A DNA stretch of 64,000 nt from a virus. This document shows, one piece after another, positions 6,443 to 32,999 of the stretch. Each line of letters begins with the position of its first letter. Position 1 is the first letter of the stretch. The notes below the pieces were generated by a model, which worked only from the letters and a program-made list of their open reading frames with translations, was not told where the DNA came from and did not search any database. Where the stretch lies: IMG/VR virus record IMGVR_UViG_3300013006_000024, positions 1 through 64,000 of that record; one strand, 5' to 3'. A program made the translations under genes and the position numbers.

Positions 6443-6443
6443 C

Positions 6444-8607: not shown

Positions 8608-9432
8608 TTATCCTATCAGATACCCCATTAACGTGGGGTAATCATAACCTTGTTCAGCTGCACCACCAAAATGGTAGTTTGAAGCCCACATGTCAATATA
8701 ATCACCCTGACTGCATTGTATTATGATGCTCCAACTGGTGCTCATGGGATGTGAATTACTGTTATGAACATAACACTGTCTTACATTATTTTTTCTTATT
8801 TCAAAAATACCGACACCAGAATTATTTTGACTATTCATATGCCCTGCTGTAAAATGATAATTACCGGCAATGGGTACATTGAATTGTTTATCTGTTAAAC
8901 TGTAGTGGCCACCCACATTTACTGGTGCGTAGTTAAAGGGAACCTTAATAAGTGTATTTCCTTGATTTCCGCCACCGCCTGTCATGCTAACTCTAAATAT
9001 GGGTTGATAGGGTATAGTTACATAACCTGCTGAACTTATTGTCATTTTTGCTGAATTGTTTGTTATGAATTGTGTGGCATGGGCTGTTCTTGAGCCAAAA
9101 TAAGATGCATTATCAAGTGTGCCGGCCACATCAGTTCTACCTGATGAAGAACCTTCAACACCACAATACAAGTTTGCGCCATTACCATTTAAATGCGAGT
9201 TTAACTGATGTTTTGTTACGGATGTGCTTTGAAATAAATTTGTTTCTTGAGGCGCCTGTATATGCAGTCTGGTAAAAGTTAATGGTGTAGTTGTTCCAAT
9301 TGCCACACACTCTGTATTCTGAAATAATGCACTTACCGGTACACCCAAGGTATTGGAACCTGTGCTGTAAGCAAGTAAATTATTACCAGCAGGTACACCT
9401 GGTGTCAATTGAGATATGGTTACGTCTGCCAT
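8608..9432 (-). CDS. Fibre/adhesin, MADxTIS family, C-terminal C1q-like domain
   Basis: MADVTISQL N-module; shaft repeat TNNSAKMTISSAG; C1q pattern VPF...NVGGHY...FNVPIAGNYHF...GDYI...GYLIG. Confidence 0.7.
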   Translation of the reverse strand: MADVTISQLTPGVPAGNNLLAYSTGSNTLGVPVSALFQNTECVAIGTTTPLTFTRLHIQAPQETNLFQSTSVTKHQLNSHLNGNGANLYCGVEGSSSGRTDVAGTLDNASYFGSRTAHATQFITNNSAKMTISSAGYVTIPYQPIFRVSMTGGGGNQGNTLIKVPFNYAPVNVGGHYSLTDKQFNVPIAGNYHFTAGHMNSQNNSGVGIFEIRKNNVRQCYVHNSNSHPMSTSWSIIIQCSQGDYIDMWASNYHFGGAAEQGYDYPTLMGYLIG

Positions 9433-9488
9433 AGATATACAATATTATTTATGTTGATCTTGTTATAACTTATAATATAATAGCTAAT

Positions 9489-10142
9489 ATGTCTAAAGTA
9501 AAACTCGCTTTCGCTAATCACAATCATCCTCATACTCAAGAAGAAAGAGAACAAATAATTGAAAGAGCATCTAAGGCTTATGAAGCTTATATGGATGCAT
9601 TAGGTTATGATTGGAGAAATGATCCAAACAGTGATAATACCCCACATCGCGTGGCTAAGGCTTTCGTAGAAGACTTCGCATGGGGCTGTTATAGCAAGCC
9701 ACCGAAGATTACAGCTTTTGATAATATTGATCAATATGATGGAATGGTTTGTCAGAATAATATTAAATTAACCTCGCTTTGTTCCCATCATCATGCACCT
9801 TTTACCGGGGTAGCTCATGTTGCTTATATTCCTTCTAAAGAAGGTAAAGTTATTGGTCTGAGTAAGCTTAATCGTATTGTAGATTGGTTTGCTCGCCGTC
9901 CACAAGTACAAGAAAATCTTACTATGCAAATTCATGCGCATATCGATTTAGTATGCGAAAAGAATAATGGTGTAGCAGTAATGATTGAAGCTAATCATAC
10001 TTGTTGCTCTAATCGTGGTATTAGACATGATTCAACGATGCGGACAGCTAGAATGTCTGGTGCGTTCTTAGATAATAATGATAATTCTCGAGCTGAGTTT
10101 TATAAGTTTGTTGAATTTGCGCAGAATAAAAAGTTAATTTAA
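9489..10142 (+). CDS. folE: GTP cyclohydrolase I
   Basis: TPHRVAK, SLCSHHHAPF.G.AHVAYIP, GLSKLNR, RPQVQE, HTC...RG. Confidence 0.95.
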   Translation: MSKVKLAFANHNHPHTQEEREQIIERASKAYEAYMDALGYDWRNDPNSDNTPHRVAKAFVEDFAWGCYSKPPKITAFDNIDQYDGMVCQNNIKLTSLCSHHHAPFTGVAHVAYIPSKEGKVIGLSKLNRIVDWFARRPQVQENLTMQIHAHIDLVCEKNNGVAVMIEANHTCCSNRGIRHDSTMRTARMSGAFLDNNDNSRAEFYKFVEFAQNKKLI

Positions 10143-10945
10143 AAATCGCCTCTGTAATAACCACCGCCGTTATAATATCTACAACACATCCATAATTCTT
10201 GTGCAAACGGTCTATGTTCGTAAGGTGTAGCTACCGAGCCTCTCTCTAACTGTACACCGGTAATTTCAATATAATCGTTTGCATTAGATGCTGTACCTTG
10301 TGTATCCCAGAAAAATCCAACTAACATTTCACCTATTCCTGCTCCTACAGTACCAGTTAATTTATAAAAAGTACCGGTTGTCGTTAATTCGCTAGAAGTA
10401 AAACTTTTAAAAATAGCATTTGTTTGACCCGTCCAATTGTTACCAGCTGCTAAATTACCTGCTTGATCTACCCCTGTACCAGTAGTAACAGAAGTCCAAA
10501 CATAAGTACCGGAGAAGCTAGAGCCTTTTCTAAGCCAAAAAGAGAGGGTTATCTCTTGATTTGCTAGATCAAAACAATCAGTAGATTCTATTTGATTCCA
10601 TAATCTGTACTGCTCAGTTAAAGTAGAGCCTGATGGTTTTCCCGCTCTAATACAATATGGACGGCCACCGAAACCAGTTTGCCGAGTAATAATATTTATC
10701 GGAGAATTATTTTGACTAAAAGCCCACCTATCAGCAGTATAAGTTGAAGTTCCATTACCTGCAATATTTGTAAAGGTTGTACCTCTTTGCCAAACTATAG
10801 GGGAGCCATTTATTAAGCGATTTCTCGTACCTAATAAACTATTTGTAGAAAGTTTTGTAGTTGTATTACCATCACTCAGAGGTAAAAAATTTTCCGCTGA
10901 TAGCACTAAATTAGTTGTTAGCTGCGATATTGTTGTATCAGCCAT
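10139..10945 (-). CDS. Fibre/adhesin, MADxTIS family, carbohydrate-binding-like beta-sandwich
   Basis: MADTTISQL; RNRLING...WQRG...ADRW...VQLERGSVATPYEHR...RYY, a common phage fibre domain. Confidence 0.7.
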   Translation of the reverse strand: MADTTISQLTTNLVLSAENFLPLSDGNTTTKLSTNSLLGTRNRLINGSPIVWQRGTTFTNIAGNGTSTYTADRWAFSQNNSPINIITRQTGFGGRPYCIRAGKPSGSTLTEQYRLWNQIESTDCFDLANQEITLSFWLRKGSSFSGTYVWTSVTTGTGVDQAGNLAAGNNWTGQTNAIFKSFTSSELTTTGTFYKLTGTVGAGIGEMLVGFFWDTQGTASNANDYIEITGVQLERGSVATPYEHRPFAQELWMCCRYYNGGGYYRGDF

Positions 10946-11585
10946 TGTTATCTACTTTCTTTTTCTTCTTAAAAACTATAAAAGGTCTTTTTGTTTGTGG
11001 GTTATATATCTTAAGAACATCTTTACCTTTAAATTTAGCTCCACCATGCTGGTTAACTATTAAAGTTTTTTGTTTGTTAGCAATATGACGGATAGCATTT
11101 TCACTAAAACTTGGTCTCATCCATTCTTTTGAAAGAGGATCTTTTTTATTAATAGCTATTACATTGTAACGAACTGATTCATTTACCTGTTTATTAACAT
11201 CAATCACTGCATTTAATTTCTTAAGAAAAGGTTCGCCTACTAAGATAGGATCTTCATTTTCAGAACGATCCGCTATGCTAAAAGGAACATCTTTATACTC
11301 TTTTCCGTTAATTTTAATATTGAGCTTTACTATAGGTCTATCTTCTTTAACCCCACTTCCAATATGTATCTTTATGTCACCCGCACGAGGTGCTTTCATT
11401 GGTTTACCATCTACAGTAGTGAAAGAAATGTTTTCACCGTCTTCAGAAATATCTACACCATGCAGAACATTATAGGCTTCATTACCACTATCAATTTTAG
11501 CCTTAAGCTTACCTAAGCCATTAATTTCGATTAATTCGTTTACACCAAACACTGGTTTGTTATAAAAATCTTTAAACGGTTCCAT
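10938..11585 (-). CDS. Retropepsin-like aspartic peptidase (RimK-associated 'Zn_protease' type)
   Basis: KAKIDSGN, EDRPIV, FSIADRS, ILVG..FL; start revised to ATG 11585 (MEPFKDFY), 5 nt after TAAATA. Confidence 0.7.
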   Translation of the reverse strand: MEPFKDFYNKPVFGVNELIEINGLGKLKAKIDSGNEAYNVLHGVDISEDGENISFTTVDGKPMKAPRAGDIKIHIGSGVKEDRPIVKLNIKINGKEYKDVPFSIADRSENEDPILVGEPFLKKLNAVIDVNKQVNESVRYNVIAINKKDPLSKEWMRPSFSENAIRHIANKQKTLIVNQHGGAKFKGKDVLKIYNPQTKRPFIVFKKKKKVDNNG

Positions 11586-11691
11586 AATATTATTTATTGA
11601 TTTATAAACTGTTTTCATGTAACACCATAGTATGATAAATCTATTTGGAAAAAGCACATTTATCTCTTAATTTAGAATAAATATATATAAC

Positions 11692-12288
11692 ATGTTTGCT
11701 AATGATTATAATAATCTTAATGATCTATATGATAAAAAGATCATAAAAGAAAACGTTGGTCTTGGGACTCTAGCTGACAATGAGACTGTATCGCCCACAC
11801 CGGCCAGAGTTAAGAAGATACAAATGCCTCCTAAAAGATCTTGTGGTAACAATGAAGAACAAGAGCATTATAGCAAGAGTGAGGATTGTGAAGGTTATGA
11901 TCCTGCATCTTACGACAGCAATGGTCAAATGGCAAAACAGCTTCTTTTTAGATGTGCAAAAATTTCTGCAATGCTCCATGATATATTAGCAGGTAAAGAT
12001 AATGTTGAAGCTTGGGTTTTAAGCAAGATTACTAATGCACACGATCAGCTAGAGTCTGTATTCGGTTATGAAGATTATGAAGCCGCTAAGAATCCAATGC
12101 ATGGTACATGTGATGATGCAGGTAATTTAGAAGAAAATAATGAAGAAGAACTTTTTTCTGCAATTGCTGCAGGTGGTGATAAATTATTGACTAATCTTAA
12201 AACAGCATTAAGAAGAGAATCGAGAGAAAATTTAGAAAAAGTTTTATTTGAAACAATTCTTATCCTAGAAGAAAAAAATAAGAAATAA
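11692..12288 (+). CDS. Hypothetical late protein (T4-like phage conserved helical motif)
   Basis: TAAATA 8 nt upstream; GQMAKQLL...VEAWVLSKITNA motif. Confidence 0.5.
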   Translation: MFANDYNNLNDLYDKKIIKENVGLGTLADNETVSPTPARVKKIQMPPKRSCGNNEEQEHYSKSEDCEGYDPASYDSNGQMAKQLLFRCAKISAMLHDILAGKDNVEAWVLSKITNAHDQLESVFGYEDYEAAKNPMHGTCDDAGNLEENNEEELFSAIAAGGDKLLTNLKTALRRESRENLEKVLFETILILEEKNKK

Positions 12289-12945
12289 TTATTTTAGTTT
12301 CGTATTGAAGAGATTGTAGATTTTAGGATCAAATTTACCTAGTATTTGAGCGATATATTCTTTTCTTTGTTGCTCATTAGCAGCTTTATACATATTTCTT
12401 AGCTCTGTAGCACTAGTTATATTCTTACCACCTATATTAAACTGGATAGTGCCAGGTGAGTATATGTAGCCGTGGCCGCCATCTTCTCTAAAAGGATACA
12501 TTTCATTTAAACTTCTAAAGGGCTGAAAGTATGTTGGCTTGCCTTTTTTGGTCATACCGAATGCAAATCTAGGATCTTCTTTCATATCCTTTTCACCTAC
12601 AACATAAACTACTTTAGCTACATTAGGATCATAGTCTTTTAAAATTTCTAAAGGCTTATAAGGTTGTTTAACGAGCTTAATTTCTTGCTCAGGAACACCT
12701 GCTGCTAACATAATCTGCTTTTTTTCATTAAAATTAAAAGGGTATCTGCTTGGATCTTTACCAGCATCTTTAGCAGGCATATCGGATGTAGCTATAAAAA
12801 AATCAGCACCTGGAAATTGCTTTTTAGCCATATCAAAAAACTTTTTATGACCAATATGAAAGGGTTGAAAGCGACCCGGGAAAATAACTATAAGGTTATT
12901 CTTCTGAGGCATTAAAATTTCATTTACTAAATCATCGAATTTCAT
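12289..12945 (-). CDS. HIGH-motif (cytidyltransferase-like) nucleotidyltransferase
   Basis: IVIFPGRFQPFHIGH, PFNFNEK, VVGEKD, SATELR. Confidence 0.8.
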   Translation of the reverse strand: MKFDDLVNEILMPQKNNLIVIFPGRFQPFHIGHKKFFDMAKKQFPGADFFIATSDMPAKDAGKDPSRYPFNFNEKKQIMLAAGVPEQEIKLVKQPYKPLEILKDYDPNVAKVVYVVGEKDMKEDPRFAFGMTKKGKPTYFQPFRSLNEMYPFREDGGHGYIYSPGTIQFNIGGKNITSATELRNMYKAANEQQRKEYIAQILGKFDPKIYNLFNTKLK

Positions 12946-14156
12946 ATAGGCATTCCTGGCGTTAATCTTCCTTGTAAAATATCCTTACTATAGGGCGGAG
13001 CAGTTTGATAGTTTGGGGTGTTATTAACCCTATCCATATTTGCTAACTGTCCTCTAATACCGTATTCTTCATTTTCACCTCTATTAGCAAATTTACCAGC
13101 TTCTTTTCCTGTAATAAAGCTCCCTGTTATTTTAACTGGGTTAGCTGATATAGTGTTATCCCTTACAACTATACCCTCCTGATCACCAATGCTACCAAGC
13201 TTTGAATTGGCAGCTTGCTTAATCTTGTCACCTAGCTTAATTGTAGCATAATAAAACAATGCACCATTAATAGCCTTTTCAATATCTTTCTTATTATTAC
13301 CAATATAGGTATGCATAGGTACACCATTAATTATATTCTTAAAATTCTCTAGACTCATAGCGCTAATAGATTTACCAGAAGCTAGTTTAATTTTATCAGC
13401 TCGAGGATTAACAGCCTTAGTTAACCATTCACTTAAAGGCTTGGTAACAATATTCTTTGTGTCGTAGTTAACTGTAAACTTTGAACTTAATACATCATTA
13501 AAATTTACATTACCCTGTTCAACAGTAAACTCGTGTTCCACATCAAAGCCAGACTTCTTAGCAATAGGATTAACTTTAAATATTAAAGATAATAATGCTT
13601 TTTTATCATATGGTATTTCGCGTGATGCTCTTCTCACACTACCACGTACCGGGCTCTTAACTTCTATAATCTCATTTAACCCGTGTATAGCTAAAAAGTT
13701 ATTAGCATAACCAATTACATTGGTTGCGCCTTTCACAAATTCCATATTAAAAAGTATTTTTGGATTATTCCACATTTTAAGTTTTTTAAGCTCCGGCTCT
13801 ATGCTGGGAATAGCAGTATTAAAAATATTGAGTACAGTCTTACCTGTTTCTATCATACCATGGCCTTCAGGAAAGCGAGATGTTAACTTAGCAATTGTTA
13901 CACCCTCTACATCTTCAGGTTTATTAGAACCTCTATCCATAGCAAACTCTTTATTACCTTCTGCATTGGTAATTAATTTAATGGAAGCATTTACACCGTC
14001 AATCTTAACAGAAGAAGGTTTTTTCTTAAGACTATTAACAAGCTTATTAAAAATATTAATTAGATCTTTCCCTGTACGTGCATTAGGTAGATCAAAAGGA
14101 TGTGCCATGTGACCGGCTACCCCGCCTTCTAATAAAAATTGTGCAAATGTTATCAT
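12942..14156 (-). CDS. Ligase-like covalent nucleotidyltransferase (DUF6267-like)
   Basis: GHMAHPFD; SVKIDG (motif I KxDG), NMEFV, EGIVVRD (IV), VKITG (V). Confidence 0.55.
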   Translation of the reverse strand: MITFAQFLLEGGVAGHMAHPFDLPNARTGKDLINIFNKLVNSLKKKPSSVKIDGVNASIKLITNAEGNKEFAMDRGSNKPEDVEGVTIAKLTSRFPEGHGMIETGKTVLNIFNTAIPSIEPELKKLKMWNNPKILFNMEFVKGATNVIGYANNFLAIHGLNEIIEVKSPVRGSVRRASREIPYDKKALLSLIFKVNPIAKKSGFDVEHEFTVEQGNVNFNDVLSSKFTVNYDTKNIVTKPLSEWLTKAVNPRADKIKLASGKSISAMSLENFKNIINGVPMHTYIGNNKKDIEKAINGALFYYATIKLGDKIKQAANSKLGSIGDQEGIVVRDNTISANPVKITGSFITGKEAGKFANRGENEEYGIRGQLANMDRVNNTPNYQTAPPYSKDILQGRLTPGMPI

Positions 14157-15643: not shown

Positions 15644-15644
15644 A

Positions 15645-16100
15645 TCATTTTGTTTTAAGATTTGGATCGTCGCTATAACGCTGCATTATATTAAGAATCT
15701 CTTTATACTTTGCCATAAAATTATTTTCATTTATAGATTGTTCAAACTTTCTAAAATGAGGGTTAGTTAATTTAGTAGGATTATCTTCAAAATTTTCATT
15801 CTGTGCAATAGATTGCTGTAAAGCTTCTCTCACATCTGTAGCAGTCTCTCTATTAATAGGCTTTGTGAAAAGAGTATCAATTGAACCAGGAGGGATGTTC
15901 ATAACTAATGCTTTTGCAAGCATTCGAACAATATCTACATAACCTTCAGGCGGGAGAGCATCAGGCTCCTCCTTAACCTGAGACTGAGGTCTTGAGGGAT
16001 CGGGAATAGCAGATTGAGCTTCAGGCATTGCTGCATCTTCAGGCTGATCTTGCTCATTAAAGAGATTCATATACTTAGATATTTTGTCGTTAAAGCTCAT
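15645..16100 (-). CDS. Hypothetical late protein
   Basis: TAAATA at 16106-16111 (minus); MSFNDKISKYMNLFNE-Q. Confidence 0.5.
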   Translation of the reverse strand: MSFNDKISKYMNLFNEQDQPEDAAMPEAQSAIPDPSRPQSQVKEEPDALPPEGYVDIVRMLAKALVMNIPPGSIDTLFTKPINRETATDVREALQQSIAQNENFEDNPTKLTNPHFRKFEQSINENNFMAKYKEILNIMQRYSDDPNLKTK

Positions 16101-16108
16101 ATAGTTAT

Positions 16109-17248
16109 TTATTGTGGATACGTATAACTTATTATAATCTTACCATTAGAACCAGCAGCATTTACACCTTTACCACCTTGCCCAGCGCCTCCTCTATCCG
16201 AATCATTAGGATTACCGGGTAGCCCGGTGTTATTGTCAGGATTATCTCCAGCTACTGTGTTAATATTACTAGATAATCCACCTGTATACCCGGATCCACC
16301 GCCCCCACCACCACTAGCAGTCCGTATATAATAGCCATATCCGCCTCCACCCCCGTAGTACCCCCCTCCACCACCCCCACCTGGACCATAGCCACCAGAT
16401 GGCTGACCTTTTCCGCCCTGCAACTGAGCTCCAATATATAAAGCATCAGAAGTGTTTTGCCCTGCTGCTCCACCAGCAGATTGTGTACCTCTCTTACCGC
16501 CAGATGCACCCCAATAATTACCCTCACCACCTCCACCGCTATCTAATCCGGATGCACCACCGCCTGCTCCTCCCTTAAGACCTCCTGCTTCCCCAGCCCC
16601 GCCTCCACCGCCACCTGCAATTGCAATTGCATTTGCAAAAGTTTTACTTACCAGGAATATACCAGAATAACCACCACCTCCACCAGAGCCGTATGTTAAG
16701 TTGTAAGATGCATCACCAACACTACCTCCACCGTTGTAACCGCCTATGTGTGTACTAGAGGCTCCTCCTCCAACAGAAATAATATATACTTGACCTGATG
16801 TAACGGTTTTAGTACCGCTTGTATAGCCACCTCCACCTCCAGCTGTATTAGAGCCTACAGTCGAACCGCCTGCACCCCACATTTTAACAGATAATGAAGT
16901 AATACCTGCAGGCACTATAAAACTAACATCTAATCCAGTATAATCATATACTGTTGTTACAGTACCTGTTGACGATGTAGCTTGTGCTAATCCAAGCCAA
17001 TATCCATTATTGTATATTTCTAAAGTATTAAGAGAAGTATTAAACCTTAACATTCCGGAGCTCGGAGCACCCGGTCTTTGTGCAGTTGTACCAGCAGGAA
17101 TAGGTAGAGCGCCTCCAATATTACCGGTAGCAGTAATAATTCCGCTTACCGGTATACCAGATGTAACACCGTCAACAGAAATAGGTACTATAGCACCGGT
17201 ATTAGTTGTCAAAATTCTAGATAAACCGGAAATGGTAGTATCAGCCAT
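16109..17248 (-). CDS. Fibre/adhesin, MADxTIS family, glycine-rich tip domain
   Basis: MADTTISGL; PAGTTAQRP...GMLRFNT...EIYN; VPAGITSLSVKMWGAGG and poly-Gly tracts. Confidence 0.7.
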   Translation of the reverse strand: MADTTISGLSRILTTNTGAIVPISVDGVTSGIPVSGIITATGNIGGALPIPAGTTAQRPGAPSSGMLRFNTSLNTLEIYNNGYWLGLAQATSSTGTVTTVYDYTGLDVSFIVPAGITSLSVKMWGAGGSTVGSNTAGGGGGYTSGTKTVTSGQVYIISVGGGASSTHIGGYNGGGSVGDASYNLTYGSGGGGGYSGIFLVSKTFANAIAIAGGGGGGAGEAGGLKGGAGGGASGLDSGGGGEGNYWGASGGKRGTQSAGGAAGQNTSDALYIGAQLQGGKGQPSGGYGPGGGGGGGYYGGGGGYGYYIRTASGGGGGGSGYTGGLSSNINTVAGDNPDNNTGLPGNPNDSDRGGAGQGGKGVNAAGSNGKIIISYTYPQ

Positions 17249-17264
17249 CTAATTATTTATTAAT

Positions 17265-17828
17265 TTAACTAATGAGAAGTTGTTTAGTCTTAAGCTGATT
17301 AAAGTATTCTTTATTTAGAAAAATAAGATCATTCTTCTTAGTAAACGTTCTTACGCTAGCAAATGTATAGTTTTCTATATTAACACTATCTATATAACTT
17401 CTAATACTATTAATAACTTCAATACCTCTGCCGTCGTTAGAAGAAAGGAGGTGGGTAAGAAAATCAAACGATATATTAGTAATAAACATCTTTATAGGTA
17501 ATAATTTCTTTATTTTAGCTAAAACAATATTAAGAGTCTTAAGAACGTCCTCTTCTTTAAAATACTTAAAAATATGTAACTGTTCGAGTTGGGTATTATT
17601 AAAGTAAATAATAGTTTTTTCAGTACTAGGGTTATTCAAAAGCTCTTCACAAAGACTATGAATAATATGATGATAGAAAAACTTCTTAGCATGATTAGAT
17701 ATTTTCTCTTTTAAAAGATCAAACCTATGCAGATCGTTTATTAAATTAACTTCCATCTTTCTTGCGAAAATATAGTTAAAATTTAGCAGCTTAAAATTAT
17801 ATTGACTAAACTCAATTTTTTTGAGCAT
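17265..17828 (-). CDS. Hypothetical protein
   Basis: 187 aa ORF with TTGAGT-N16-CATAAT upstream; no confident motif. Confidence 0.45.
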   Translation of the reverse strand: MLKKIEFSQYNFKLLNFNYIFARKMEVNLINDLHRFDLLKEKISNHAKKFFYHHIIHSLCEELLNNPSTEKTIIYFNNTQLEQLHIFKYFKEEDVLKTLNIVLAKIKKLLPIKMFITNISFDFLTHLLSSNDGRGIEVINSIRSYIDSVNIENYTFASVRTFTKKNDLIFLNKEYFNQLKTKQLLIS

Positions 17829-17853
17829 ATCTTATTATGAATGAAAATATAAA

Positions 17854-18267
17854 CTACTCAAGAAATTTTTTAGGCGGTCTGCCGATTCTCACATTAATAA
17901 TACCATTATAATAATCTTCTCTCATTAAAACGTTTTTGTCGATTTGTTCGCTTATTTCGAAATATGCTAATTCCCATTTCGAGCCGCATGCCCGTAATAT
18001 CTTGAATATAAATTTATCTTTACCATATTTTTTAATATCTTCGTTTAAATCGGTCGATGAGCTAGTATACTCTTTCCAATCTGATTCTTTAATTTCAATT
18101 CTTTTATTCTTTTTTCCTTTTAAAGGCTTTCTCTTTAATTTTGACTTACACTGTTTTTTGCCAATATATTTCTTACCGGTAATAGTATTTGTAATTTCAT
18201 ATATAAAGCCAAACGTATTCTCGTCTATAATTACGTTTTCATTTAATATCCAATGACCTAGATCCAC
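17854..18267 (-). CDS. GIY-YIG family endonuclease
   Basis: FGFIYEITNTITGKKYIGKK...WKEYTSSS...YYN. Confidence 0.8.
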   Translation of the reverse strand: MDLGHWILNENVIIDENTFGFIYEITNTITGKKYIGKKQCKSKLKRKPLKGKKNKRIEIKESDWKEYTSSSTDLNEDIKKYGKDKFIFKILRACGSKWELAYFEISEQIDKNVLMREDYYNGIINVRIGRPPKKFLE

Positions 18268-18270
18268 GAG

Positions 18271-18522: not shown

Positions 18523-18548
18523 ATAACTATATACTATTATTTAAGTTA

Positions 18549-18941
18549 ATGCTGCTAGAAGATTACATAAAAGAGCTAGAAAATGACTTAAAAATTGATG
18601 AGCTTATTTTAAAAGAATATCAATTAAAGTTACCGGGTATAAAGCATAAATGGGCTGGCCGATGCATTCGTCATAAGCTAGAGCTAGTAGCGATTCGTAA
18701 GAAGAGAGAAAAACTAAAGAAAGAAATTGTAGATAAAATACAGGAACAAAGTCCGGTAAAACTCGCAATACCTATGGTGGAACGCACAGCAGAGAAATGT
18801 TCTGAAATTACTGACATTGATAATACTATAAAAGAATTGGAACTGATAATAGAGTTGTTAGAAAAATCGGAAAAGACATTAAGCTCTACGTCTTATGATA
18901 TTAAGAATCTTGTTGATATTATTAAACTTGAAACAACGTAA
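18549..18941 (+). CDS. uvsY: Recombination mediator UvsY-like
   Basis: DLKIDEL.L....LKLP.IKHKW...DIKNLVDI; upstream of uvsW; start revised to ATG 18549 after TTGATT-N16-TATTAT. Confidence 0.7.
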   Translation: MLLEDYIKELENDLKIDELILKEYQLKLPGIKHKWAGRCIRHKLELVAIRKKREKLKKEIVDKIQEQSPVKLAIPMVERTAEKCSEITDIDNTIKELELIIELLEKSEKTLSSTSYDIKNLVDIIKLETT

Positions 18942-19810
18942 TGAAGGTTTTATTTATTGCAGACGGGCTTTGTGATTATCAAAGTGATACTATTTTTCAC
19001 GGCTTGTATGATCTGTTGGGTGCTGATTTTACTCATTCAAATGAGTATCATTTTATGTATAGAGAGCAGACTAATGTAACGGATCTAATTAATAGATGCT
19101 CTGGCCGCGGATTTACAATGTGGGGGCATCTACCGAAATATTATAATGATAATTCTGACCTCGAATCAAAGATTAAAAATAAATTATTTGATTATATAAT
19201 ATATGGTAGTATTAGACGTAATAAAAACTATCTAGAGCTAGTAAAGCAATATTATCCTAAAAATAAAATCTGTTTTATAGAAGGAGAAGACTGCACGGGT
19301 GTTTTTGATACTGATGGTATTATACTCTTTAAAAGGGAATTAGTTTTTGAACCTACAACGTTATTACGACCAATTTCCTTTGGTATACCACCAAAAAAAA
19401 TTGTTACTGATACTACTATTATTAATAAGACAAGGGATATAGCTGAATATATACCTAGCTCACCTGGTACAGGTTATATTTTTGAAAATGAAGACGCATA
19501 TTATAATAACTATAAAACAGCTAAATTCGGTATAACGAAGAAAAAATCTGGTTGGGATTGTATGAGGCACTATGAAATTTTGGCAAATTATTGTATACCT
19601 TTATTTGAAAATTTAGACGCGTGTCCTTCATGTACTATGGTAAATTTTCCTAAAGAGGATATTATTAATATTAATAGAAAGTTTATTAGTAATGATTTAT
19701 CTCATTTAGAGTATAATGATGTATTAAATAAACTATTTGAATATACTAAAATAAACCTCACGACAACTGCAATTACAAAATACGTATTAGATACGCTTAA
19801 AAATCTGTGA
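18941..19810 (+). CDS. Glycosyltransferase-like protein (GT-B type C-terminus)
   Basis: FIEGED, FKRE, AKFGIT.KKSGWDCMRHYEILANYCIP. Confidence 0.55.
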   Translation: MKVLFIADGLCDYQSDTIFHGLYDLLGADFTHSNEYHFMYREQTNVTDLINRCSGRGFTMWGHLPKYYNDNSDLESKIKNKLFDYIIYGSIRRNKNYLELVKQYYPKNKICFIEGEDCTGVFDTDGIILFKRELVFEPTTLLRPISFGIPPKKIVTDTTIINKTRDIAEYIPSSPGTGYIFENEDAYYNNYKTAKFGITKKKSGWDCMRHYEILANYCIPLFENLDACPSCTMVNFPKEDIININRKFISNDLSHLEYNDVLNKLFEYTKINLTTTAITKYVLDTLKNL

Positions 19811-24694: not shown

Positions 24695-24697
24695 TAT

Positions 24698-25906: not shown

Positions 25907-25967
25907 TAAATCGTCCGCATATAAAAGTTTAACTTTTATTTTTGTGAATTGATATTATAATAGTATT

Positions 25968-28550
25968 GTGTATAGGAATGTAGCATACTTACCTAGAGAG
26001 CAGCTAATGAGGCTCTTTACATGGGATCAGAACGGCAAACGTATAGCCGTCGATACTACCTTTGAGCCATATATTTATTTAGAAACAAATAATAAACCGG
26101 ATAGTACAAGTATATTCAATACAAAGCTTAAGAAGAAAAAATTTCGTAATCAAGCCGAGAGATCTCGATATCTTAAAGATAATAAAATAACTCGCATATT
26201 TGAAAATTTAAATATTCAGCAACAATTTTTAATTGATAGTTTTTGGGAGCTTAATGAACGACAGGAATTTACTAATCAGCAGATAAGAGTGTTGTTTATC
26301 GATATTGAGACATATAGCCCAGATGAGTTTCCAAAGCCTGAAGATCCCCAGCATCCTATTAATGTTATAACAGTATACGATACTTTAAGAAGACAATTTA
26401 TAACATGGGGATTAAAACCATATCATAAGAAAAACGAAAACGGTATATACATTTATTGTAAGAGCGAGAAAGAGTTATTATCTAAATTTATAAATTTCTT
26501 TACTTCTGACTACCCGGATATTCTTTCGGGATGGAATAGCGAATTCTTCGATGTACCTTATATTATTAACCGTATTACAAGACTATTAGGTGAAGAAGAA
26601 ACAAAAAGATTATCACCAGTAGGGTATATAAGACCGATTGTTTTTAAAGGCAGGTTTGGTAGAGAGCAAGTGCATTGGCATATTGAGGGCGTTTCCTGTG
26701 TTGACTATCTTGATATCTATAAACGATTTTGCCCGGTACTTAGAGAGTCATATAAGCTAGATGCTATTGGCGAAACAGAGCTCGGTGAAAATAAGATTGA
26801 TTACGGGGATACAAATCTCGCAAGTCTAGCAGATGATAATTGGGAATTATTTATTGACTACAACATACAAGACGTAAATCTGCTTATTAAACTAGAGGAA
26901 AAATTACAATACTTAAAATTACTTAGAATGATAGCATATGCAGGCTTAACTACTTTTGAGGGTGCTCTAGGGTCTTTATCTGTTATTACCGGTCTATGTG
27001 CTGTAAGAGCTAGGATGCGTCAACAACGAATTCCTACTTTTAATAGAGAAGTTACAAACACAGAACAAAACGCTGGCGCTTACGTTGGCGATCCGCAGAG
27101 AGGATTTCAAGAAAATATTGTATCGTTTGACGCTAATAGCCTATATCCAAATGTAATGATCACATTAAATCTTTCACCAGAAACGAAAGTAGGTGTAATA
27201 ACAGAGAAGACTGATAAAGAGATTACCATACAGCATGTAAATGGTCAGACGTTTAATTTATCACATCAGCATTTTGTTGAATTTGTTAAGAAAGAAAAGA
27301 TAGCAATATCTAAGGCTAAGGTACTCTTTACGCAAAAAGAAAAAGGTATTATTCCAGAAACGGTAGATCATTTTTATAAAAAGCGAGTTGAAATCAAACG
27401 AGAGCTTAAGCTTGCTAAGAAACGTTTACTAGATATACAGAAAGATACCGATGAATATGCAAAACTATCTATTCAGATTGAAAATCTAAATATTACCCAG
27501 CATACTATCAAGATTTTAATTAATACAATTTACGGCTACTTTGGTAACAAGCATAGCCCGCTAGGTGACGACGAACTAGCAGAGTCAATTACATTAACTG
27601 GTCAAGCAGTTATTAAGGAATCGAATAGATTGCTAGAAGAATATATTAAGGAAAAGACCGGTCTTACAGATGAAGAATTAAAGACTAGCTCACCTATTAT
27701 TTACAACGATACAGATAGTTCCTATATATCCATCAGGCATATTGTTAATAAGACAGGTCTTAAAATGCTTAATAGTAAAGGTAAGATAACCCCGGAATAT
27801 TATAAAGTTGTACAAGATATTGAAGACCATTTAAATGAAAAAATAATTGAATGGGGTAAATCCGCTCTTGGTTCGATAGATTGCAGGCTAAACTTTAAAA
27901 GAGAGGCAATTGCAGATGCAGGATTATTTTTACAGAAAAAGCGATATGTATTACACGTATTAGACGAAGAAGGTATTCCTTGTGATAAATTTAAATATAC
28001 TGGCGTAGAGGTTGTAAGGACTACGATGCCTGCTCCTATTAAACCTTACGTTAAGAAAATTATTGAGACCATGCTTCTTACGAAAGATCTAGCGCAAACT
28101 AATAAGCTTTTTAATGAGACGTATGATATTTTTAAGAACTTGCCTATTGAAGATATAGCGTTTGTAATGGGTATTAAAGGGTATGAAAAGTACGCAGCGC
28201 AATGTGACGGATTTAAAACTGCCAAGCATATGCCTATCCATGTTAAAGCTGCATATTTTTATAACATGTTATTGGATCGGTTTAATACGGGTAAGAAGTA
28301 TGAAAAAATATCATCTGGTGATAAAGTTAGATATTTTTACGCTAAACAGCCAAACAGATTTGGCATTACTACAATAGGGTACAAGTATTCATATCCAAAG
28401 GAATTTGCCGATAACTTTCTTATTGACCATGAATTAATGTTTGAAAAGATTATTTTTTCTGTAATTGAAAGATTCTATGAAGCTGTAAATTGGAAGCTTC
28501 AATCGCCTGGTACACAGGTACAAACAAATTTATTTGAATTACTGCAGTAG
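25968..28550 (+). CDS. gp43: Family B DNA polymerase
   Basis: DIET, GWNSEFFD, YNIQD (exonuclease); SFDANSLYP, KILINTIYG, YNDTDS, KKRY. Confidence 0.95.
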   Translation: MYRNVAYLPREQLMRLFTWDQNGKRIAVDTTFEPYIYLETNNKPDSTSIFNTKLKKKKFRNQAERSRYLKDNKITRIFENLNIQQQFLIDSFWELNERQEFTNQQIRVLFIDIETYSPDEFPKPEDPQHPINVITVYDTLRRQFITWGLKPYHKKNENGIYIYCKSEKELLSKFINFFTSDYPDILSGWNSEFFDVPYIINRITRLLGEEETKRLSPVGYIRPIVFKGRFGREQVHWHIEGVSCVDYLDIYKRFCPVLRESYKLDAIGETELGENKIDYGDTNLASLADDNWELFIDYNIQDVNLLIKLEEKLQYLKLLRMIAYAGLTTFEGALGSLSVITGLCAVRARMRQQRIPTFNREVTNTEQNAGAYVGDPQRGFQENIVSFDANSLYPNVMITLNLSPETKVGVITEKTDKEITIQHVNGQTFNLSHQHFVEFVKKEKIAISKAKVLFTQKEKGIIPETVDHFYKKRVEIKRELKLAKKRLLDIQKDTDEYAKLSIQIENLNITQHTIKILINTIYGYFGNKHSPLGDDELAESITLTGQAVIKESNRLLEEYIKEKTGLTDEELKTSSPIIYNDTDSSYISIRHIVNKTGLKMLNSKGKITPEYYKVVQDIEDHLNEKIIEWGKSALGSIDCRLNFKREAIADAGLFLQKKRYVLHVLDEEGIPCDKFKYTGVEVVRTTMPAPIKPYVKKIIETMLLTKDLAQTNKLFNETYDIFKNLPIEDIAFVMGIKGYEKYAAQCDGFKTAKHMPIHVKAAYFYNMLLDRFNTGKKYEKISSGDKVRYFYAKQPNRFGITTIGYKYSYPKEFADNFLIDHELMFEKIIFSVIERFYEAVNWKLQSPGTQVQTNLFELLQ

Positions 28551-28587
28551 TTGATTTTAATAAAGTTAATAATAAAATAAACTAATT

Positions 28588-28944
28588 ATGAGCGACAAAC
28601 AACTAGTTACCTTTATTGACCATATTGGTCGTACAATTCTTGCAACTCTAGAGAGTTCTGACAAAACAACAATTACAGTAAGAAATCCTGCTATTATACA
28701 TGTGCAGCCCACACAGCAGGGGCAACTCAATGTGCAGACAATTCCTCTATATTTTAGAGAATTTGTTGGCCCTAAGAGTAAGGAAGCTGGTACTACTTGG
28801 AAATTTAATCTAGCAAGTATTGTAATGGGAGAAGATATTGACAATGATGCTAGATTGGTAGATCAGTATCATAAGCTATTTGCAGCGCCTACTGTTTCTT
28901 CTGCAGGCCAAGACGAAAAAACAATTAAGTTGTTTGACGAGTAA
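28588..28944 (+). CDS. Hypothetical protein
   Basis: 118 aa ORF with its own TTGATT-N16-TAAAAT promoter. Confidence 0.55.
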   Translation: MSDKQLVTFIDHIGRTILATLESSDKTTITVRNPAIIHVQPTQQGQLNVQTIPLYFREFVGPKSKEAGTTWKFNLASIVMGEDIDNDARLVDQYHKLFAAPTVSSAGQDEKTIKLFDE

Positions 28945-28952
28945 TTTATTAC

Positions 28953-28980
28953 TTGTTTTTAAACTTACTTCATATATACT
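28953..28980 (+). promoter_or_regulatory. Sigma70-like promoter TTGTTT-N16-TATACT (uvsX)
   Basis: 6 nt before ATG; same geometry at many replication genes. Confidence 0.65.
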
Positions 28981-28986
28981 AAAACT

Positions 28987-30105
28987 ATGAGTAAAGATCT
29001 TAATAAAATATTCGCGTCGCTAGACAAGCTTAATAGCGAGGCATCGATGTTAAATGAAAATGCACTTAGTAAAGTTGATGAGTGGTTTGATACTGGATGT
29101 TACGCTCTTAACGCTATTCTCGGCGGTAGTTGTCGTAGTGGTGGCGTACCTAAGGGAAGAATAACCGGTTTCTCTGGACCTAGTCAGACAGGTAAGACAT
29201 TTATTGTAAATAAGATTCTTGCTACTGCGCAGAAGAAAGGTCTTACTCCTGTTATATTTGATACCGAGATCGCTATTGATGAGAATAGTACAAAGGGAGT
29301 CGGATTAGACCCGGAAGGCACAAAATATGTACCTGTTGATACCATTGATCAGTGCCGTAATCAGATTAGTGCTTTTCTTGATAGCGTAATCGAAAATAAC
29401 GCGAGAGGTAAGTTTATTATTAGTATTGATAGTTTGGGTAACTTAGCCTCACAAAAAGAGCTTGATGACGTAGCTAAAGATAAATCTGCATCAGATATGG
29501 GTCTTCGCGCAAAGTCTTTAAAGAGTATGTTCCGAACGTTAACCTTTAAAGCTGCTAAGGCTGGTGTTACGATTCTATTTACAAACCATACTTACGAAGA
29601 CCCTGCTTCGATGTTTCCAAGTCTTGTAAAAAATCAGGCTGGAGGCTCAGGCCCGGTGTATATGGCTAGTATTCTAGTACAGCTTGCTAAGCGTCATGAG
29701 AAGGAAGGTGAAGGTGATTCCATGGATGCAGATGATAAGAAGCTTGCAGAAGCCAATAAGTACAGTGGTACAACACTTCGTGCGCTAACTGTTAAGAATC
29801 GCTTTCTCCCACCGTTTTTAGAGACAGAAATGTACCTTTCCTTTAAGACTGGTCTTAACAAGTATAGCGGGTTGCTTGGTATGGCGACTGCAAGAGGTAT
29901 CATTGAACAAAATGGTGCAACATATACTGTTGGTATTACTAGCGGTAAGTATAAAAAAGGTGATAAACTAGGTTATGCAAAGACTTTTGCAAAAGACCCC
30001 GCTTTCTACGAGGAGTTTATTATTCCAGAACTCGACAAGCGCTTAACAGAGGAATACAAATACAACGTTAATGAAGCGCCAAGCGAAGAAGAGCCCATCG
30101 CGTAA
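28987..30105 (+). CDS. uvsX: RecA-like recombinase
   Basis: DTGCYALNAIL, GPSQTGKT, FDTE, IDSLGNL, DMGLRAK, TNHTY. Confidence 0.92.
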   Translation: MSKDLNKIFASLDKLNSEASMLNENALSKVDEWFDTGCYALNAILGGSCRSGGVPKGRITGFSGPSQTGKTFIVNKILATAQKKGLTPVIFDTEIAIDENSTKGVGLDPEGTKYVPVDTIDQCRNQISAFLDSVIENNARGKFIISIDSLGNLASQKELDDVAKDKSASDMGLRAKSLKSMFRTLTFKAAKAGVTILFTNHTYEDPASMFPSLVKNQAGGSGPVYMASILVQLAKRHEKEGEGDSMDADDKKLAEANKYSGTTLRALTVKNRFLPPFLETEMYLSFKTGLNKYSGLLGMATARGIIEQNGATYTVGITSGKYKKGDKLGYAKTFAKDPAFYEEFIIPELDKRLTEEYKYNVNEAPSEEEPIA

Positions 30106-30814
30106 AGCAGTTGTTCCTATTTCCGGTGGAATGGACAGTACAGTACTGTTACATTTAGCTGCGAGCCAGTATGATGAGATTATAGCAATTAGCTATAATT
30201 ACGGTCAGAAGCACAAGGACAAAGAGCTCAATTGTGCTGCTCTGCAGGTTGAATCAATCAAAGTACCAGTTGAGTATAAATGGATAGATTTACCGTTTTT
30301 CAAGAGTATTTGTGAGGTCTCTTCACTTCTTAATACTAAAATTGCTGTAGCTAAGGCTAAAGATGTGATGGGAGATCCACAGACGGTGAACTATGTTCCG
30401 TATAGGAACCTAATGCTTCTTAGTATATCACTAGCAATAGCGGAGAACGCTGGGGCTAGCACTGTTTTTCATGGTGCTGCACAAGCCGATAGCGTTGCAG
30501 GGTTCTGGGATGGCAGCGAAGAATTTCTGGAGCAAATCAATAAAGTATCAGCTTTGAACCGTAGAAATAAAATTATAGTACAAGCACCGTTAATCGACAA
30601 ATCTAAGGAAGAAATCATAAAACTCGGTATTAAGCTTGGTGTAGATTTTAGTAAGACTTGGACTTGTTATGAAGGAGAAGAGCAAGCTTGCGGTGAATGT
30701 ACTGCGTGCTCTTTGCGAATAAAAGGCTTTATAGATGCGAGGTATATAGACCCGTTAAACTACAAGATATCGTTGCCTTGGGAAAAATACAATTGTAAAC
30801 AGATTAGTATTTAA
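30071..30814 (+). CDS. queC: 7-cyano-7-deazaguanine synthase
   Basis: SGGMDST, YGQKH, YVPYRN, TWTCY, CGECTAC..R. Confidence 0.93.
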   Translation: MKRQAKKSPSRKAVVPISGGMDSTVLLHLAASQYDEIIAISYNYGQKHKDKELNCAALQVESIKVPVEYKWIDLPFFKSICEVSSLLNTKIAVAKAKDVMGDPQTVNYVPYRNLMLLSISLAIAENAGASTVFHGAAQADSVAGFWDGSEEFLEQINKVSALNRRNKIIVQAPLIDKSKEEIIKLGIKLGVDFSKTWTCYEGEEQACGECTACSLRIKGFIDARYIDPLNYKISLPWEKYNCKQISI

Positions 30815-31667
30815 TTACAGGCAGCATCGCTAGATTTCTAGGCCTTATTGCACCGCCACCCCAACTGCCGTCATTAATCCAATCACCACCATTAGCAACA
30901 TTACCTGGACCAGCTGTACTGATAGTCCCGGCATAATCTGATTTAGCTGCTGTATCCAACCCAATAAGAGTCCTCCCATCTGACGGGCTTGATCCTGCAG
31001 CAATACTGTGTACATAGTTCTCTGAGCTTGGAGTGTTAAAAGCCATAACAGTAGATTTTTGATAGCTGCCAAATGCTCTATCTGTATCTACACCTCTACT
31101 GTTATCCCAACCTCTTAAAAACTCTCCTCTCAAGTCAGGCAGTTTACCAGCTACACCGTATGTGGTACCTAATAATGTAAATAGCGCGCTAAAATTATAA
31201 GTTATCCCCTGTACAACACCGTTTCCATTTGGAACAGTATCACCATTGCAAACCAAATAACCTGAAGGTGTTGTAGATGTTGCCATGTAAAAAACTGCTC
31301 CTACTGGTACTGCTACAGGAACATTTTTCAGTGTCAAACCTCCAGTAATATTAATATTTCCTGCCGTATCAATGCGCATACGTTCAGTGTTATTTGTTAC
31401 TAAAGAAAGAGGATGGTTAGTATATGAACCAAATCTATTTTCCAAGCTAGTAGTATTTGCTTGAATGTAAACGGATTGCGAATTGAGCGATATATTTGTA
31501 CTTGCCCATATTGTAGGGTTTGACGAGTTGACTAAATAAAAAGAACTACTGCCTTGAAACAAGGCACTTACAGGCGTTGCAAGTGTGTCGCTCCCTGTGC
31601 TGTATGGCAGCAAATGCCCCGGAGAGGGGTTAGCGCGCGCTAAATCAGATATTGTTGTATCAGCCAT
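30804..31667 (-). CDS. Fibre/adhesin, MADxTIS family, tail-collar domain
   Basis: MADTTISDL; TNNTERMRIDTAG; VPVGAV...PSGYLVCNG...LPDLRGEFLRGWD...RPRNLA...IKY. Confidence 0.78.
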   Translation of the reverse strand: MADTTISDLARANPSPGHLLPYSTGSDTLATPVSALFQGSSSFYLVNSSNPTIWASTNISLNSQSVYIQANTTSLENRFGSYTNHPLSLVTNNTERMRIDTAGNINITGGLTLKNVPVAVPVGAVFYMATSTTPSGYLVCNGDTVPNGNGVVQGITYNFSALFTLLGTTYGVAGKLPDLRGEFLRGWDNSRGVDTDRAFGSYQKSTVMAFNTPSSENYVHSIAAGSSPSDGRTLIGLDTAAKSDYAGTISTAGPGNVANGGDWINDGSWGGGAIRPRNLAMLPVIKY

Positions 31668-31685
31668 ATGTTATATCCATGTGTA

Positions 31686-32402
31686 CTAAATTTCTACTAC
31701 CATGCAACTGGATGCAGTTCCTAGTTTTATTAAGGATTTTGAGTTTGCAGTTATAAGCTCATCAATTTCTTTCTTAATTCCATCCACTAGTATGGTCCCA
31801 TCAATAGGAATCACATAACTGCTTGTTTGTATTTGTTCATCTTTAAAAATCATTTTGGCATTATAATCCCTTGCAATATCCTCTGGGCAGAATGCCACCC
31901 ATTTGATCTCATCTGTGGAGATTAAAAATTTGCGCGTTGTTGTAAATAAGCTTTTTACATTATAAAAACCATCCTTTTCAAATATTGTGCCTGTAGTTTG
32001 CTCTACACCTCTACCATCAATCATAAACAAGTAATGAGAGGTATATCGGGACTCAACTCTATATGCATTTGTGAACTCTGGCCCCTTCACAATACCTCTG
32101 CACACAGAGAATGGCTTAAAATTTTGCACTTCATTCATTTTCAATAGAGTTTCGGTAGGTGAATATTTGCTTCCCTTCAATATTACCTCATCTATGATAT
32201 GATCATATGCATCACTGCTGTTGAATTCTGAATTGACAACAGCTTTATCCTTGTGTTCAATCAACCCACGCCCCTCTTTGCATGTAACTGTGCTCACCCC
32301 GTTGAGGAGAAATTTATTTAAATTTAAAAAATATATTTTATTATTAATTTCAACATAGTTATCATCAAAGCTAATTTTAAAATATGTATTGTTGTATTGC
32401 AT
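31686..32402 (-). CDS. Hypothetical protein between fibre genes (possible fibre partner/chaperone)
   Basis: Own TAAATA; sandwiched between two MADxTIS genes. Confidence 0.4.
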   Translation of the reverse strand: MQYNNTYFKISFDDNYVEINNKIYFLNLNKFLLNGVSTVTCKEGRGLIEHKDKAVVNSEFNSSDAYDHIIDEVILKGSKYSPTETLLKMNEVQNFKPFSVCRGIVKGPEFTNAYRVESRYTSHYLFMIDGRGVEQTTGTIFEKDGFYNVKSLFTTTRKFLISTDEIKWVAFCPEDIARDYNAKMIFKDEQIQTSSYVIPIDGTILVDGIKKEIDELITANSKSLIKLGTASSCMVVEI

Positions 32403-32413
32403 ATTAATAATAT

Positions 32414-32914
32414 TTATGATATTTTAATTATATAATGCAGGCTGATGTAAGGGGGGAGTGTAGCCACCGTAACCGGGTGAGTGTGTGATCCTCCATAGCT
32501 TGCAATTCCGGTTAAGTATGTTGCACAGGCTGGCTGATTTTTTCCACCGCATGCCGCACCTGGCGCGTATGTACTTGATCTAAAAGAGCTTTGTTGTGTG
32601 GAGTTTAAAGATGTTGCCCCCACAGTTCCTGTTACAGAAGCTTGCCCTCCAGTTGTATTGAGAGGATAAGTACTTCCTGCACCCACAGCAAATCGATCGC
32701 GCAAATCTGGCCTGCCTGCTTGCCCATCACACAATGCCCAACCTGAGGGTATGCTAGCTCCATTGTAATTAGACCACATGACTATAGTGCCAACGGGCAC
32801 TCCCCCGATGTCTGATATGGACACCCTTCCAGTTGTTGTTCCATCTGACACAGGAACAGACAAGCTCCCACTGGGGGTCATTGGACTAAGCGCAGAGATG
32901 GTTGTATCAGCCAT
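32414..32914 (-). CDS. Short fibre, MADxTIS family, collar-like domain
   Basis: MADTTISAL; VPVGTIVMW...IPSGWALCDG...PDLRDRF.VGAG...LPPYISLHYIIK. Confidence 0.75.
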   Translation of the reverse strand: MADTTISALSPMTPSGSLSVPVSDGTTTGRVSISDIGGVPVGTIVMWSNYNGASIPSGWALCDGQAGRPDLRDRFAVGAGSTYPLNTTGGQASVTGTVGATSLNSTQQSSFRSSTYAPGAACGGKNQPACATYLTGIASYGGSHTHPVTVATLPPYISLHYIIKIS

Positions 32915-32918
32915 ATTA

Positions 32919-32999
32919 TTAAGTTATAGTTATAGGTAATATAGCGCCTGTATTAGTAGTTAGCGCGCGCGCTAAATCAGTAATTGTTGTATCGGCCAT
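32919..32999 (-). pseudogene. 26-codon remnant of a MADxTIS-family gene
   Basis: Manual translation MADTTITDLARALTTNTGAILPITIT-stop; not in ORF track. Confidence 0.75.

Follow-up and report, generated by a model that had tools for sequence, protein, structure and literature searches.

The question raised by this locus is why several genes for otherwise dissimilar proteins, lying among unrelated neighbours, should share a single N-terminus. The stretch analysed here (the window) takes in positions 1–64,000 of IMG/VR virus record IMGVR_UViG_3300013006_000024 (105,162 bp, completeness estimated at 49%, 34% G+C). A first-pass annotation of its sequence described five intact genes (8608–9432, 10139–10945, 16109–17248, 30804–31667 and 32414–32914) and one stub (32919–32999), all on the minus strand and all starting MAD(T/V)TI(S/T)xL, and all six sets of coordinates hold. 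We refer to such fibre genes, which start with a shared 40-residue N-terminal module (the N-module), as MAD genes, and propose that they probably encode late, mostly trimeric short virion fibres that use the N-module as a docking peptide and are exchanged as cassettes. The family, its architecture, the constraint on the module at the protein level, the adhesin-type tips and the turnover of cassettes with mapped breakpoints are all directly supported.

A loose regular expression applied to the six frames of the window returns the six known MAD starts and no others, and a profile of the first 45 residues, searched against the six-frame translation of the 105 kb contig, finds only the same six (E 6e-13 to 2e-23), the next-best match having E 0.21. 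Scored against 1.84 billion representative proteins (clusters at 50% identity), a profile of the 40-residue module matches 335 clusters when the threshold is E ≤ 1e-3, of which 82 remain at E ≤ 1e-10. The module forms residues 1–40 of cluster representatives of 39–532 aa, apart from three offset matches (two N-terminal, and one internal in a 1624-aa protein), and M1, A2, D3, T5, I6, S7 and L9 are near-invariant across the family. All of the clusters come from uncultured phages, their members being unnamed or annotated 'hypothetical protein', and approximately 28 IMG/VR contigs carry the module. The family is therefore absent from annotation resources: neither Pfam nor PHROG has a model of the module, a sequence search of the PDB gave chance-level matches alone, a search of the ESM Atlas with residues 1–45 gave nothing but unnamed viral clusters below 0.9, and the motif strings are absent from the searchable full-text literature. 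None of 185,579 species genomes scanned contained a relative of the module, and prophages hence give no clue to the host.

Across 43 distinct gene copies, synonymous codons are used freely at the invariant residues (GCC/GCT/GCA; ACA/ACC/ACG/ACT; ATA/ATT/ATC; five Leu codons), and the constraint therefore acts on the protein and not on the DNA or RNA. This bears on a different explanation of the shared start, namely that it reflects a nucleic-acid constraint (a recombination handle, or an initiation signal of leaderless late mRNAs) or a leader directing the protein to the capsid, as in the T4 internal proteins, which have a common short N-terminal targeting sequence and a polymorphic locus. ATAAATA does lie 5–6 nt before many start codons, with transcripts that may be leaderless, and crossovers do occur in the first 26–74 nt; but the combination of fixed residues with freely varying codons largely refutes such a reading, and late genes outside the family have unrelated starts despite equal promoter spacing. 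Conservation in the MAD family spans 40 residues, as against the approximately 10-residue leader and prohead-protease site of the T4 internal proteins, no conserved Glu, acidic or other cleavage-type position is present, and the tips have the folds of extracellular adhesins and not those of internal proteins. We regard this explanation as highly improbable.

Beyond the module the proteins diverge, and the tips proposed in the first-pass annotation (a gC1q head, a sandwich resembling a carbohydrate-binding module (CBM), a glycine-rich domain and two collar types) were borne out by Pfam, PHROG and fold searches. The gene at 8608–9432 (274 aa, MADVTISQL) encodes the N-module, a shaft motif and a gC1q tip, which matches C1q PF00386 with 31.5 bits (cut-off 23.7) and whose AlphaFold2 model matches the gC1q heads 6z6v and 1pk6 in Foldseek (E 8e-9, template modelling score 0.81). 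In the product of 10139–10945 (268 aa, MADTTISQL) the N-module is joined to a CBM-like tip, a beta-sandwich that in a fold search of its AlphaFold2 model is nearest to CBM4/16/22 modules and a domain of CBA120 TSP4; the protein also matches the tail-fibre family phrog_4492 (E 2e-35). The start of this gene overlaps the 3' end of the upstream gene 10938–11657 by 8 nt. The gene at 16109–17248 (379 aa, MADTTISGL) encodes the N-module, a GTTAQRP...LRFN segment and then the glycine-rich domain, identified by Pfam as ALK_LTK_GRD.

The other two intact genes have collar-type tips. That at 30804–31667 (287 aa, MADTTISDL; protein P0004) combines the N-module, a shaft and a collar tip like that of short tail fibres, with a Collar PF07484 match of 40.6 bits (cut-off 24) and a match of residues 90–236 to the phiTE short tail fibre 9cuy (E 3e-5). 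The smallest, at 32414–32914 (166 aa, MADTTISAL; protein P0005), has the N-module joined directly to its tip, which scores only 20.2 bits against Collar PF07484, under the cut-off, and is backed by the tail-collar fibre family phrog_1800 (E 5e-15), the solved tail fibres 9qgo and 9nxk and the related tip protein C24 (6ov6). The shaft motif FGS.T.H.....TNN...M.I..AG, previously noted in two members, is indeed seen in 8608–9432 and 30804–31667; over the family the shaft between N-module and tip is optional and ranges from 0 to approximately 120 residues. The MAD genes of the window have 37–49% G+C compared to a genome value of 34%, which may reflect a Gly/Ala/Thr-rich composition or a foreign origin.

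Among 141 family representatives, Pfam identifies C1q in 22, Gly_rich_2 in five, Peptidase_S74 in four, BclA_C in three, and Laminin_G_3, CBM_4_9, F5_F8_type_C and Collar in one each, the majority having no match. C1q heads, BclA heads and S74 chaperone domains are parts of trimeric fibres. The tips thus appear to have folds of adhesins or fibres, which known structures show as trimers, and by this analogy the individual MAD proteins would be mostly trimeric.

Comparison with relatives shows how the genes come and go; in what follows G000 denotes the source record, and G001–G007 and the L-numbered stretches denote its relatives. G003 (62.8 kb, 95% identical) is collinear with the window in seven blocks of 88–98% identity per block (mostly 93–98%). 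Four of the seven breaks in collinearity between G000 and G003 are MAD genes, although these occupy approximately 9% of the region (binomial estimate approximately 0.002). The site between orf302 and queC is occupied in G003 by a single glycine-rich MAD gene (389 aa, 16642–17811), where G000 has the stub followed by a cassette of three genes on the minus strand: the 166-aa collar gene at 32414–32914, orf238 (31686–32402, no MAD module, TAAATA 8 nt upstream) and, last, the 287-aa collar gene at 30804–31667. The stub (26 codons, MADTTITDL) is identical, bar one mismatch, to the first 73–74 nt of the G003 gene and diverges where the cassette starts, and homology between G000 and G003 restarts at the stop codon of the last cassette gene. 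G001 and L028 also carry a glycine-rich MAD gene at this site. The match of the stub to the G003 gene, and the glycine-rich genes in G001 and L028, argue that the state of G000 is a recent replacement of a glycine-rich gene by the three-gene cassette, with the stub as its scar. The possibility that the stub is a chimera was rejected, as it consists of the 5' 73–74 nt of a gene that still occupies the site in G003. We found no family match for orf238 and no relative among the collected sequences; its G+C content is 34%.

The same site was compared across 19 relatives, and among those with both flanks visible at least seven kinds of content occur. It may be empty, or hold a 179-aa C1q MAD gene, a MAD gene of the glycine-rich type (389–431 aa; in G001 a further MAD gene, of 250 aa, comes after it), a short MAD gene accompanied by a separate tip gene, or a non-MAD gene. 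The site takes other cargo too: in L036 (7777–8391) and L037 (8309–8923) it holds a 204-aa non-MAD open reading frame (ORF), whose C-terminus presumably resembles UDP-galactopyranose mutase.

A second variable site lies between orf187 and orf151, where G000 has its glycine-rich MAD gene, G003 an unrelated MAD gene of 305 aa, and G001 none. Both flanks are visible in 25 relatives, seven of which hold a MAD gene here, of either the glycine-rich type (approximately 380 aa) or a type of approximately 300 aa, while in at least 13 of the 25 orf151 comes directly next. Where the site is occupied, ATAAATA-N5-ATG stands on either side of the MAD gene, whose stop codon lies inside the second copy; where it is empty there is one copy. 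In the window these boundaries are an ATAAATA at 17254–17260 (minus strand), 5 nt before the ATG of 16109–17248, and a TAAATA at 16106–16111 (minus strand), which overlies the stop codon of that gene and stands 5 nt before the next ATG.

Other insertions follow a similar pattern. Between its orthologue of 8608–9432 (approximately 97% identical) and the folE-side promoter, G003 carries an extra MAD gene, with a crossover at the ATG or in the first 26 nt, and it has an additional glycine-rich MAD gene right after TerL, under TATAAATAATTAAATG, which drives a tube-like gene in G000. The breakpoints between G000 and G003 thus fall at the ATG or in the first 26 nt, after nucleotide 74 of the module, or at the stop codon. 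One pair of genes differs in another way: the queC-adjacent MAD genes of G000 (30804–31667) and G001 are identical at 24–26 of every 30 nt in windows along the module, approximately the genome average, and are unrelated past codon 40, which we read as a domain-level tip swap at an orthologous position.

The first-pass annotation had pictured a swappable repertoire of tips behind a constant N-terminus. Relatives do show gain, loss and whole-gene replacement together with one clean swap behind the N-module, and the opposite of fixed one-to-one orthologues without swapping; however, exchange is mostly of whole genes at promoter-marked sites. In residues 10–40 the module has subtypes, which for the most part go together with the downstream body, and most exchange therefore involves whole genes and not tips behind a fixed module. 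Not all of the breaks between G000 and G003 concern MAD genes: the 289-aa gene at 18941–19810 (plus strand) is missing from G003, which has an extra 371 nt at the position of G000 11655–11664 and, just upstream of the DNA polymerase gene, 159 nt against 9 nt in G000; apart from these three, the differences are MAD genes.

The number of MAD genes per contig in relatives ranges from none to at least 15, tandem arrays included. G005 (139.6 kb) has at least 15, eight of them in one tandem run; in G004 nine lie in tandem, six of which are collar-type paralogues of approximately 180 aa, kin of 32414–32914; and G006 has one. In G007, which is complete (221 kb) and collinear with G000 at 25–65% protein identity, we found no MAD gene and no comparable family with a shared N-terminus. 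The arrays in relatives sit among small non-structural genes. In the window, too, the MAD genes lie outside the tail block, as was first noted, being found at 8.6–33 kb among folE (9489–10142), queC (30071–30814) and replication genes.

Some relatives, though not the window, carry the module in split form. Five distinct short MAD proteins of 61–96 aa all end in GDI[WY]YQ[VY], a motif never found in the fused form. The four of these five genes for which genomic context is available are each followed, 9–22 nt on, by an ORF with three N-terminal G-x-W-(K/R) repeats, giving two-gene fibres of a short MAD adaptor and a W-repeat protein (L030:7903–9192, L033:7916–9238, L034:7891–9052 and L021 (G002):4038–5165). 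The W-repeat proteins end in a Gp38 adhesin, a BspA-type leucine-rich repeat (LRR; LRR_5, E 5e-53) or a BNR repeat, the last matched weakly and below threshold. Of the Gp38 matches, that of the 294-aa ORF following the 76-aa adaptor in G002 is clear (PF05268, 43.1 bits, cut-off 25) and that in L034 is weak. By analogy with T2-type gp37-gp38, such a pair may represent a trimeric adaptor capped by a monomeric adhesin; in any case the split pairs show the module functioning as a part in its own right. A further W-repeat Gp38-like ORF of G002 (6064–6933) has no adaptor ahead of it.

The remaining properties of the proposal, namely late expression, attachment to the virion, the trimeric state of each member and the docking role and location of the module, are ones that we infer. 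Each fibre would be built from the 40-residue N-module, an optional shaft and a receptor-binding tip. The N-module would most likely be a docking peptide, one that probably folds only on binding a common site on the particle. In AlphaFold2 monomer models of two of the proteins the first approximately 43 residues are unstructured (predicted local distance difference test scores of 35–43), as would be expected of a segment that folds upon binding or oligomerising, while the gC1q and CBM-like tip folds are modelled confidently. As all paralogues have the same module, a new gene that carries it could be mounted without changes elsewhere in the virion. The ATAAATA-N5-ATG element, the first approximately 25 codons and the end of the module would act as recombination handles for insertion, deletion and replacement, and the outcome would be a fast-changing repertoire for host recognition, with between 0 and at least 15 genes on a contig.

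An alternative is that the N-module serves to assemble the fibre from within, as a trimerisation nucleus or chaperone tag, with attachment achieved otherwise or the proteins released. The association of module subtypes with the downstream body, the disorder of the module in monomer models and the lack of a socket detectable by sequence methods in the structural genes on the record would all suit such a role. However, known trimeric fibres fold from the C-terminal end, as do the C1q heads and S74 chaperones of this family; the short adaptors comprise the module, a linker and a C-terminal docking motif, and thus have no fibre body to assemble; and near-invariant first residues on unrelated bodies point to a single external partner. 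We therefore consider an assembly role improbable and retain the docking peptide as the preferred reading.

The site to which the fibres would dock is the weakest step of the proposal. Guided by the example of short tail fibres, we prefer the periphery of the baseplate, as the homology of the collar tips to these favours attachment there. High MAD copy numbers, in turn, favour a high-copy site such as the neck, sheath or head, and the same fibres may instead be carried at one of these (neck or collar whiskers, as T4 fibritin; the sheath; capsid hexamers or vertices, as phi29 head fibres), with a role in reversible first contact or decoration. Copy numbers of at least 15 per contig with one module suit many equivalent sites, most MAD proteins are short (135–390 aa), P0005 matches the tip protein C24, and MAD genes flank terminase-adjacent genes in G005 and directly follow TerL in G003; in addition, a receptor-binding role has been inferred for a recombined collar fibre of T4-like Schizotequatroviruses (PMC12028318). 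The collar tips and shaft nevertheless resemble those of baseplate short tail fibres most closely, and gene position is weakly informative with cassettes occupying many promoter sites. On balance we think a non-baseplate location unlikely, though it is the strongest of the competing explanations.

Several observations weigh against docking by a common plug, at the baseplate in particular. No T4gp10-like or gp9-like socket domain was found by Pfam, PHROG or PDB sequence searches of the tail and baseplate genes on the record, which covers approximately half of the genome, with head and neck genes off the contig; comparison of G007 with G000 for a missing socket gene gave too many gene differences and no single candidate. 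As many as 15 or more paralogues with one plug fit poorly to the six-fold sites of a baseplate, and favour a higher-copy site or competition for sockets. The linkage of module subtypes to bodies could possibly mean several sockets or docking variants, or a role within the fibre. A tblastn search of 50,697 deposited phage genomes gave no significant match to the module, and thus no cultured relative. Late expression is inferred from the promoter-like motif, and three of the five intact MAD genes of the window have no ATAAATA of their own and would rely on read-through from upstream. A broader form of the docking proposal is that one universal 40-residue plug mounts a large and quickly renewed pool of adhesins, numbering as many as 15 or more per genome and with split versions included, on a single multi-copy site, so that each burst would contain stochastic mixtures of tips as a form of host-range bet-hedging, generated by late-promoter cassette exchange and not by diversity-generating retroelements, invertases or branched scaffolds. 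We offer this extension tentatively, as possible but not the likelier outcome.

The motif in question, ATAAATA, lies 5–8 nt before the ATG of the sheath, tube and several large structural genes, and also precedes 16109–17248, orf238 and orf302. T4 late promoters read TATAAATA. For the gC1q gene at 8608–9432 a late-promoter-like TAAATA is found at 9446–9451 (minus strand), 13 nt before the ATG, in an upstream region that in G003 drives the extra MAD gene. Over all called genes, 34 of 117 have TAAATA or ATAAATA within 16 nt of the start codon, mostly 5–8 nt before it (examples in the window are at 49632, 51958, 48938, 16100 and 17248), and late transcripts may thus be leaderless or nearly so.

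The principle of an N-terminal anchor or docking peptide is known, and the MAD family is a variant of it. Anchor, adapter and branched receptor-binding protein systems have been described in K1-5/SP6, G7C, CBA120 and the Klebsiella KP32, KP34, Menlow and PhiK64-1 groups (Latka et al. 2019, PMC6872550), in which docking peptides of 7–29 aa, and up to approximately 70 aa, mount unrelated secondary binding proteins on T4gp10-like domains, truncated peptide-only remnants occur (e.g. 69 aa in KpV767) and tips are exchanged horizontally (PMC6872550). The MAD family is similar in having a conserved N-terminus on divergent receptor-binding C-termini within one phage group, and its stub and short adaptors resemble the KpV767 remnant. 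In contrast, anchor-branch genes lie in the structural module, number 2–11 and use different peptides per branch point, whereas a single MAD module is common to as many as 15 or more paralogues, whose genes are scattered or arrayed outside the tail block and do not interrupt synteny inside the structural module. Also unlike those systems, no recognisable gp10-like hub was found by sequence on approximately half of the genome, and a version with adaptor plus cap exists.

The collar tips of 30804–31667 and 32414–32914, and part of the shaft, are homologous to T4 gp12-type short tail fibres such as that of phiTE (9cuy), a trimer held on the wedge protein via its N-terminal approximately 90 residues (PDB 9cuy, PMC11972413). 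However, short tail fibres are 527–554 aa in length, while the collar-tip MAD proteins have 166–287 aa and an unrelated N-terminus that also carries non-collar tips. The split fibres of relatives recall T2/S16-type gp37-gp38 (PMC12032242) in that the Gp38-domain gene directly follows the gene for a presumed carrier piece, but here the carrier is a MAD adaptor of 61–96 aa and not a long fibre, and the three-W-repeat domain also heads LRR and BNR tips. The turnover itself is reminiscent of promoter-early stem-loop (PeSL) cassettes (Arbiol 2010, PMC2839356; Comeau 2014, PMC4122927), in which single genes are inserted, deleted or replaced between close T4-like genomes and are bounded by short repeated regulatory motifs. 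PeSLs comprise early sigma-70-like promoters together with terminators of the stem-loop kind around genes that are mostly ORFans, in T4-type phages' hyperplastic regions (PMC2839356, PMC4122927); MAD boundaries consist instead of the late-type ATAAATA-N5-ATG and conserved 5' coding sequence, and the cargo is one structural family. We found no stem-loops beside MAD genes, and sigma-70-like and terminator-like sites are neither enriched nor flanking.

Host recognition is the main barrier to predicting or engineering phage host range, and the MAD family has the look of a natural plug-and-play system governed by unusually simple rules: dozens of unrelated tips behind one short N-terminal tag, insertion sites set by a promoter of approximately 15 nt, and a two-piece form of adaptor and cap. 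The evolutionary mechanism is directly visible, as breakpoints at the nucleotide level between 95%-identical genomes. If the docking site is found, the tag could be used as a general handle for placing foreign binding domains on a T4-like particle, and the range of 0 to at least 15 copies would allow repertoire size to be tested against host breadth in nature.

As regards the phage itself, no deposited phage is close to the source record in a DNA comparison. Its DNA polymerase is approximately 30% identical to T4-like phage polymerases, e.g. that of Pelagibacter phage HTVC008M, and the record encodes UvsX-, gp46/47- and gp41-like replication proteins, a wedge protein resembling gp6 and a tail fibre of 1535 aa, with wedge proteins encoded at 65529–75728; the tail block (TerL, sheath, tube, tape measure) extends from 47.2 kb onward. 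The polymerase, replication, tail and wedge genes point to a deep-branching, uncultured T4-like myovirus with a genome of approximately 200 kb.

Three further N-termini were noted. The 245-aa protein encoded at 3023–3760 (plus strand), in a glycosyltransferase region, which the first-pass annotation put forward for co-folding with the N-module, is driven by a late promoter and has an orthologue in G003; its N-terminus (..NISNLPQTQEAVNTDLLILQTENGTQTITF) is superficially like fibre N-termini, but homology to the MAD module was rejected (hhalign probability 0.15%) and nothing pointed to a partnership. The tblastn search of deposited phages returned one non-significant match, to a 143-aa 'minor tail protein' of Shewanella phage S0112 (L089:3001–3432; MK675901.1 50419–50850), which begins MADVKITQLDPGV and is encoded directly after a 761-aa tail assembly structural protein. 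The match covers 13 residues (9.9 bits, E 8) and may be due to chance or to an older tail-accessory motif in the first nine residues; we treat it as a lead and not as a member of the family. Finally, a second common N-terminal motif, M-x-(K/N)-D-x-(K/H)-L-I-(F/Y)-E-A-Y, heads otherwise unrelated proteins in the source phage and its relatives, including orf302 (33002–33910, minus strand), which borders the variable MAD site, L075:4333–4671 (minus strand) and the G007 ORFs at 47075, 47517 and 192368, and this may be another targeting or assembly tag.

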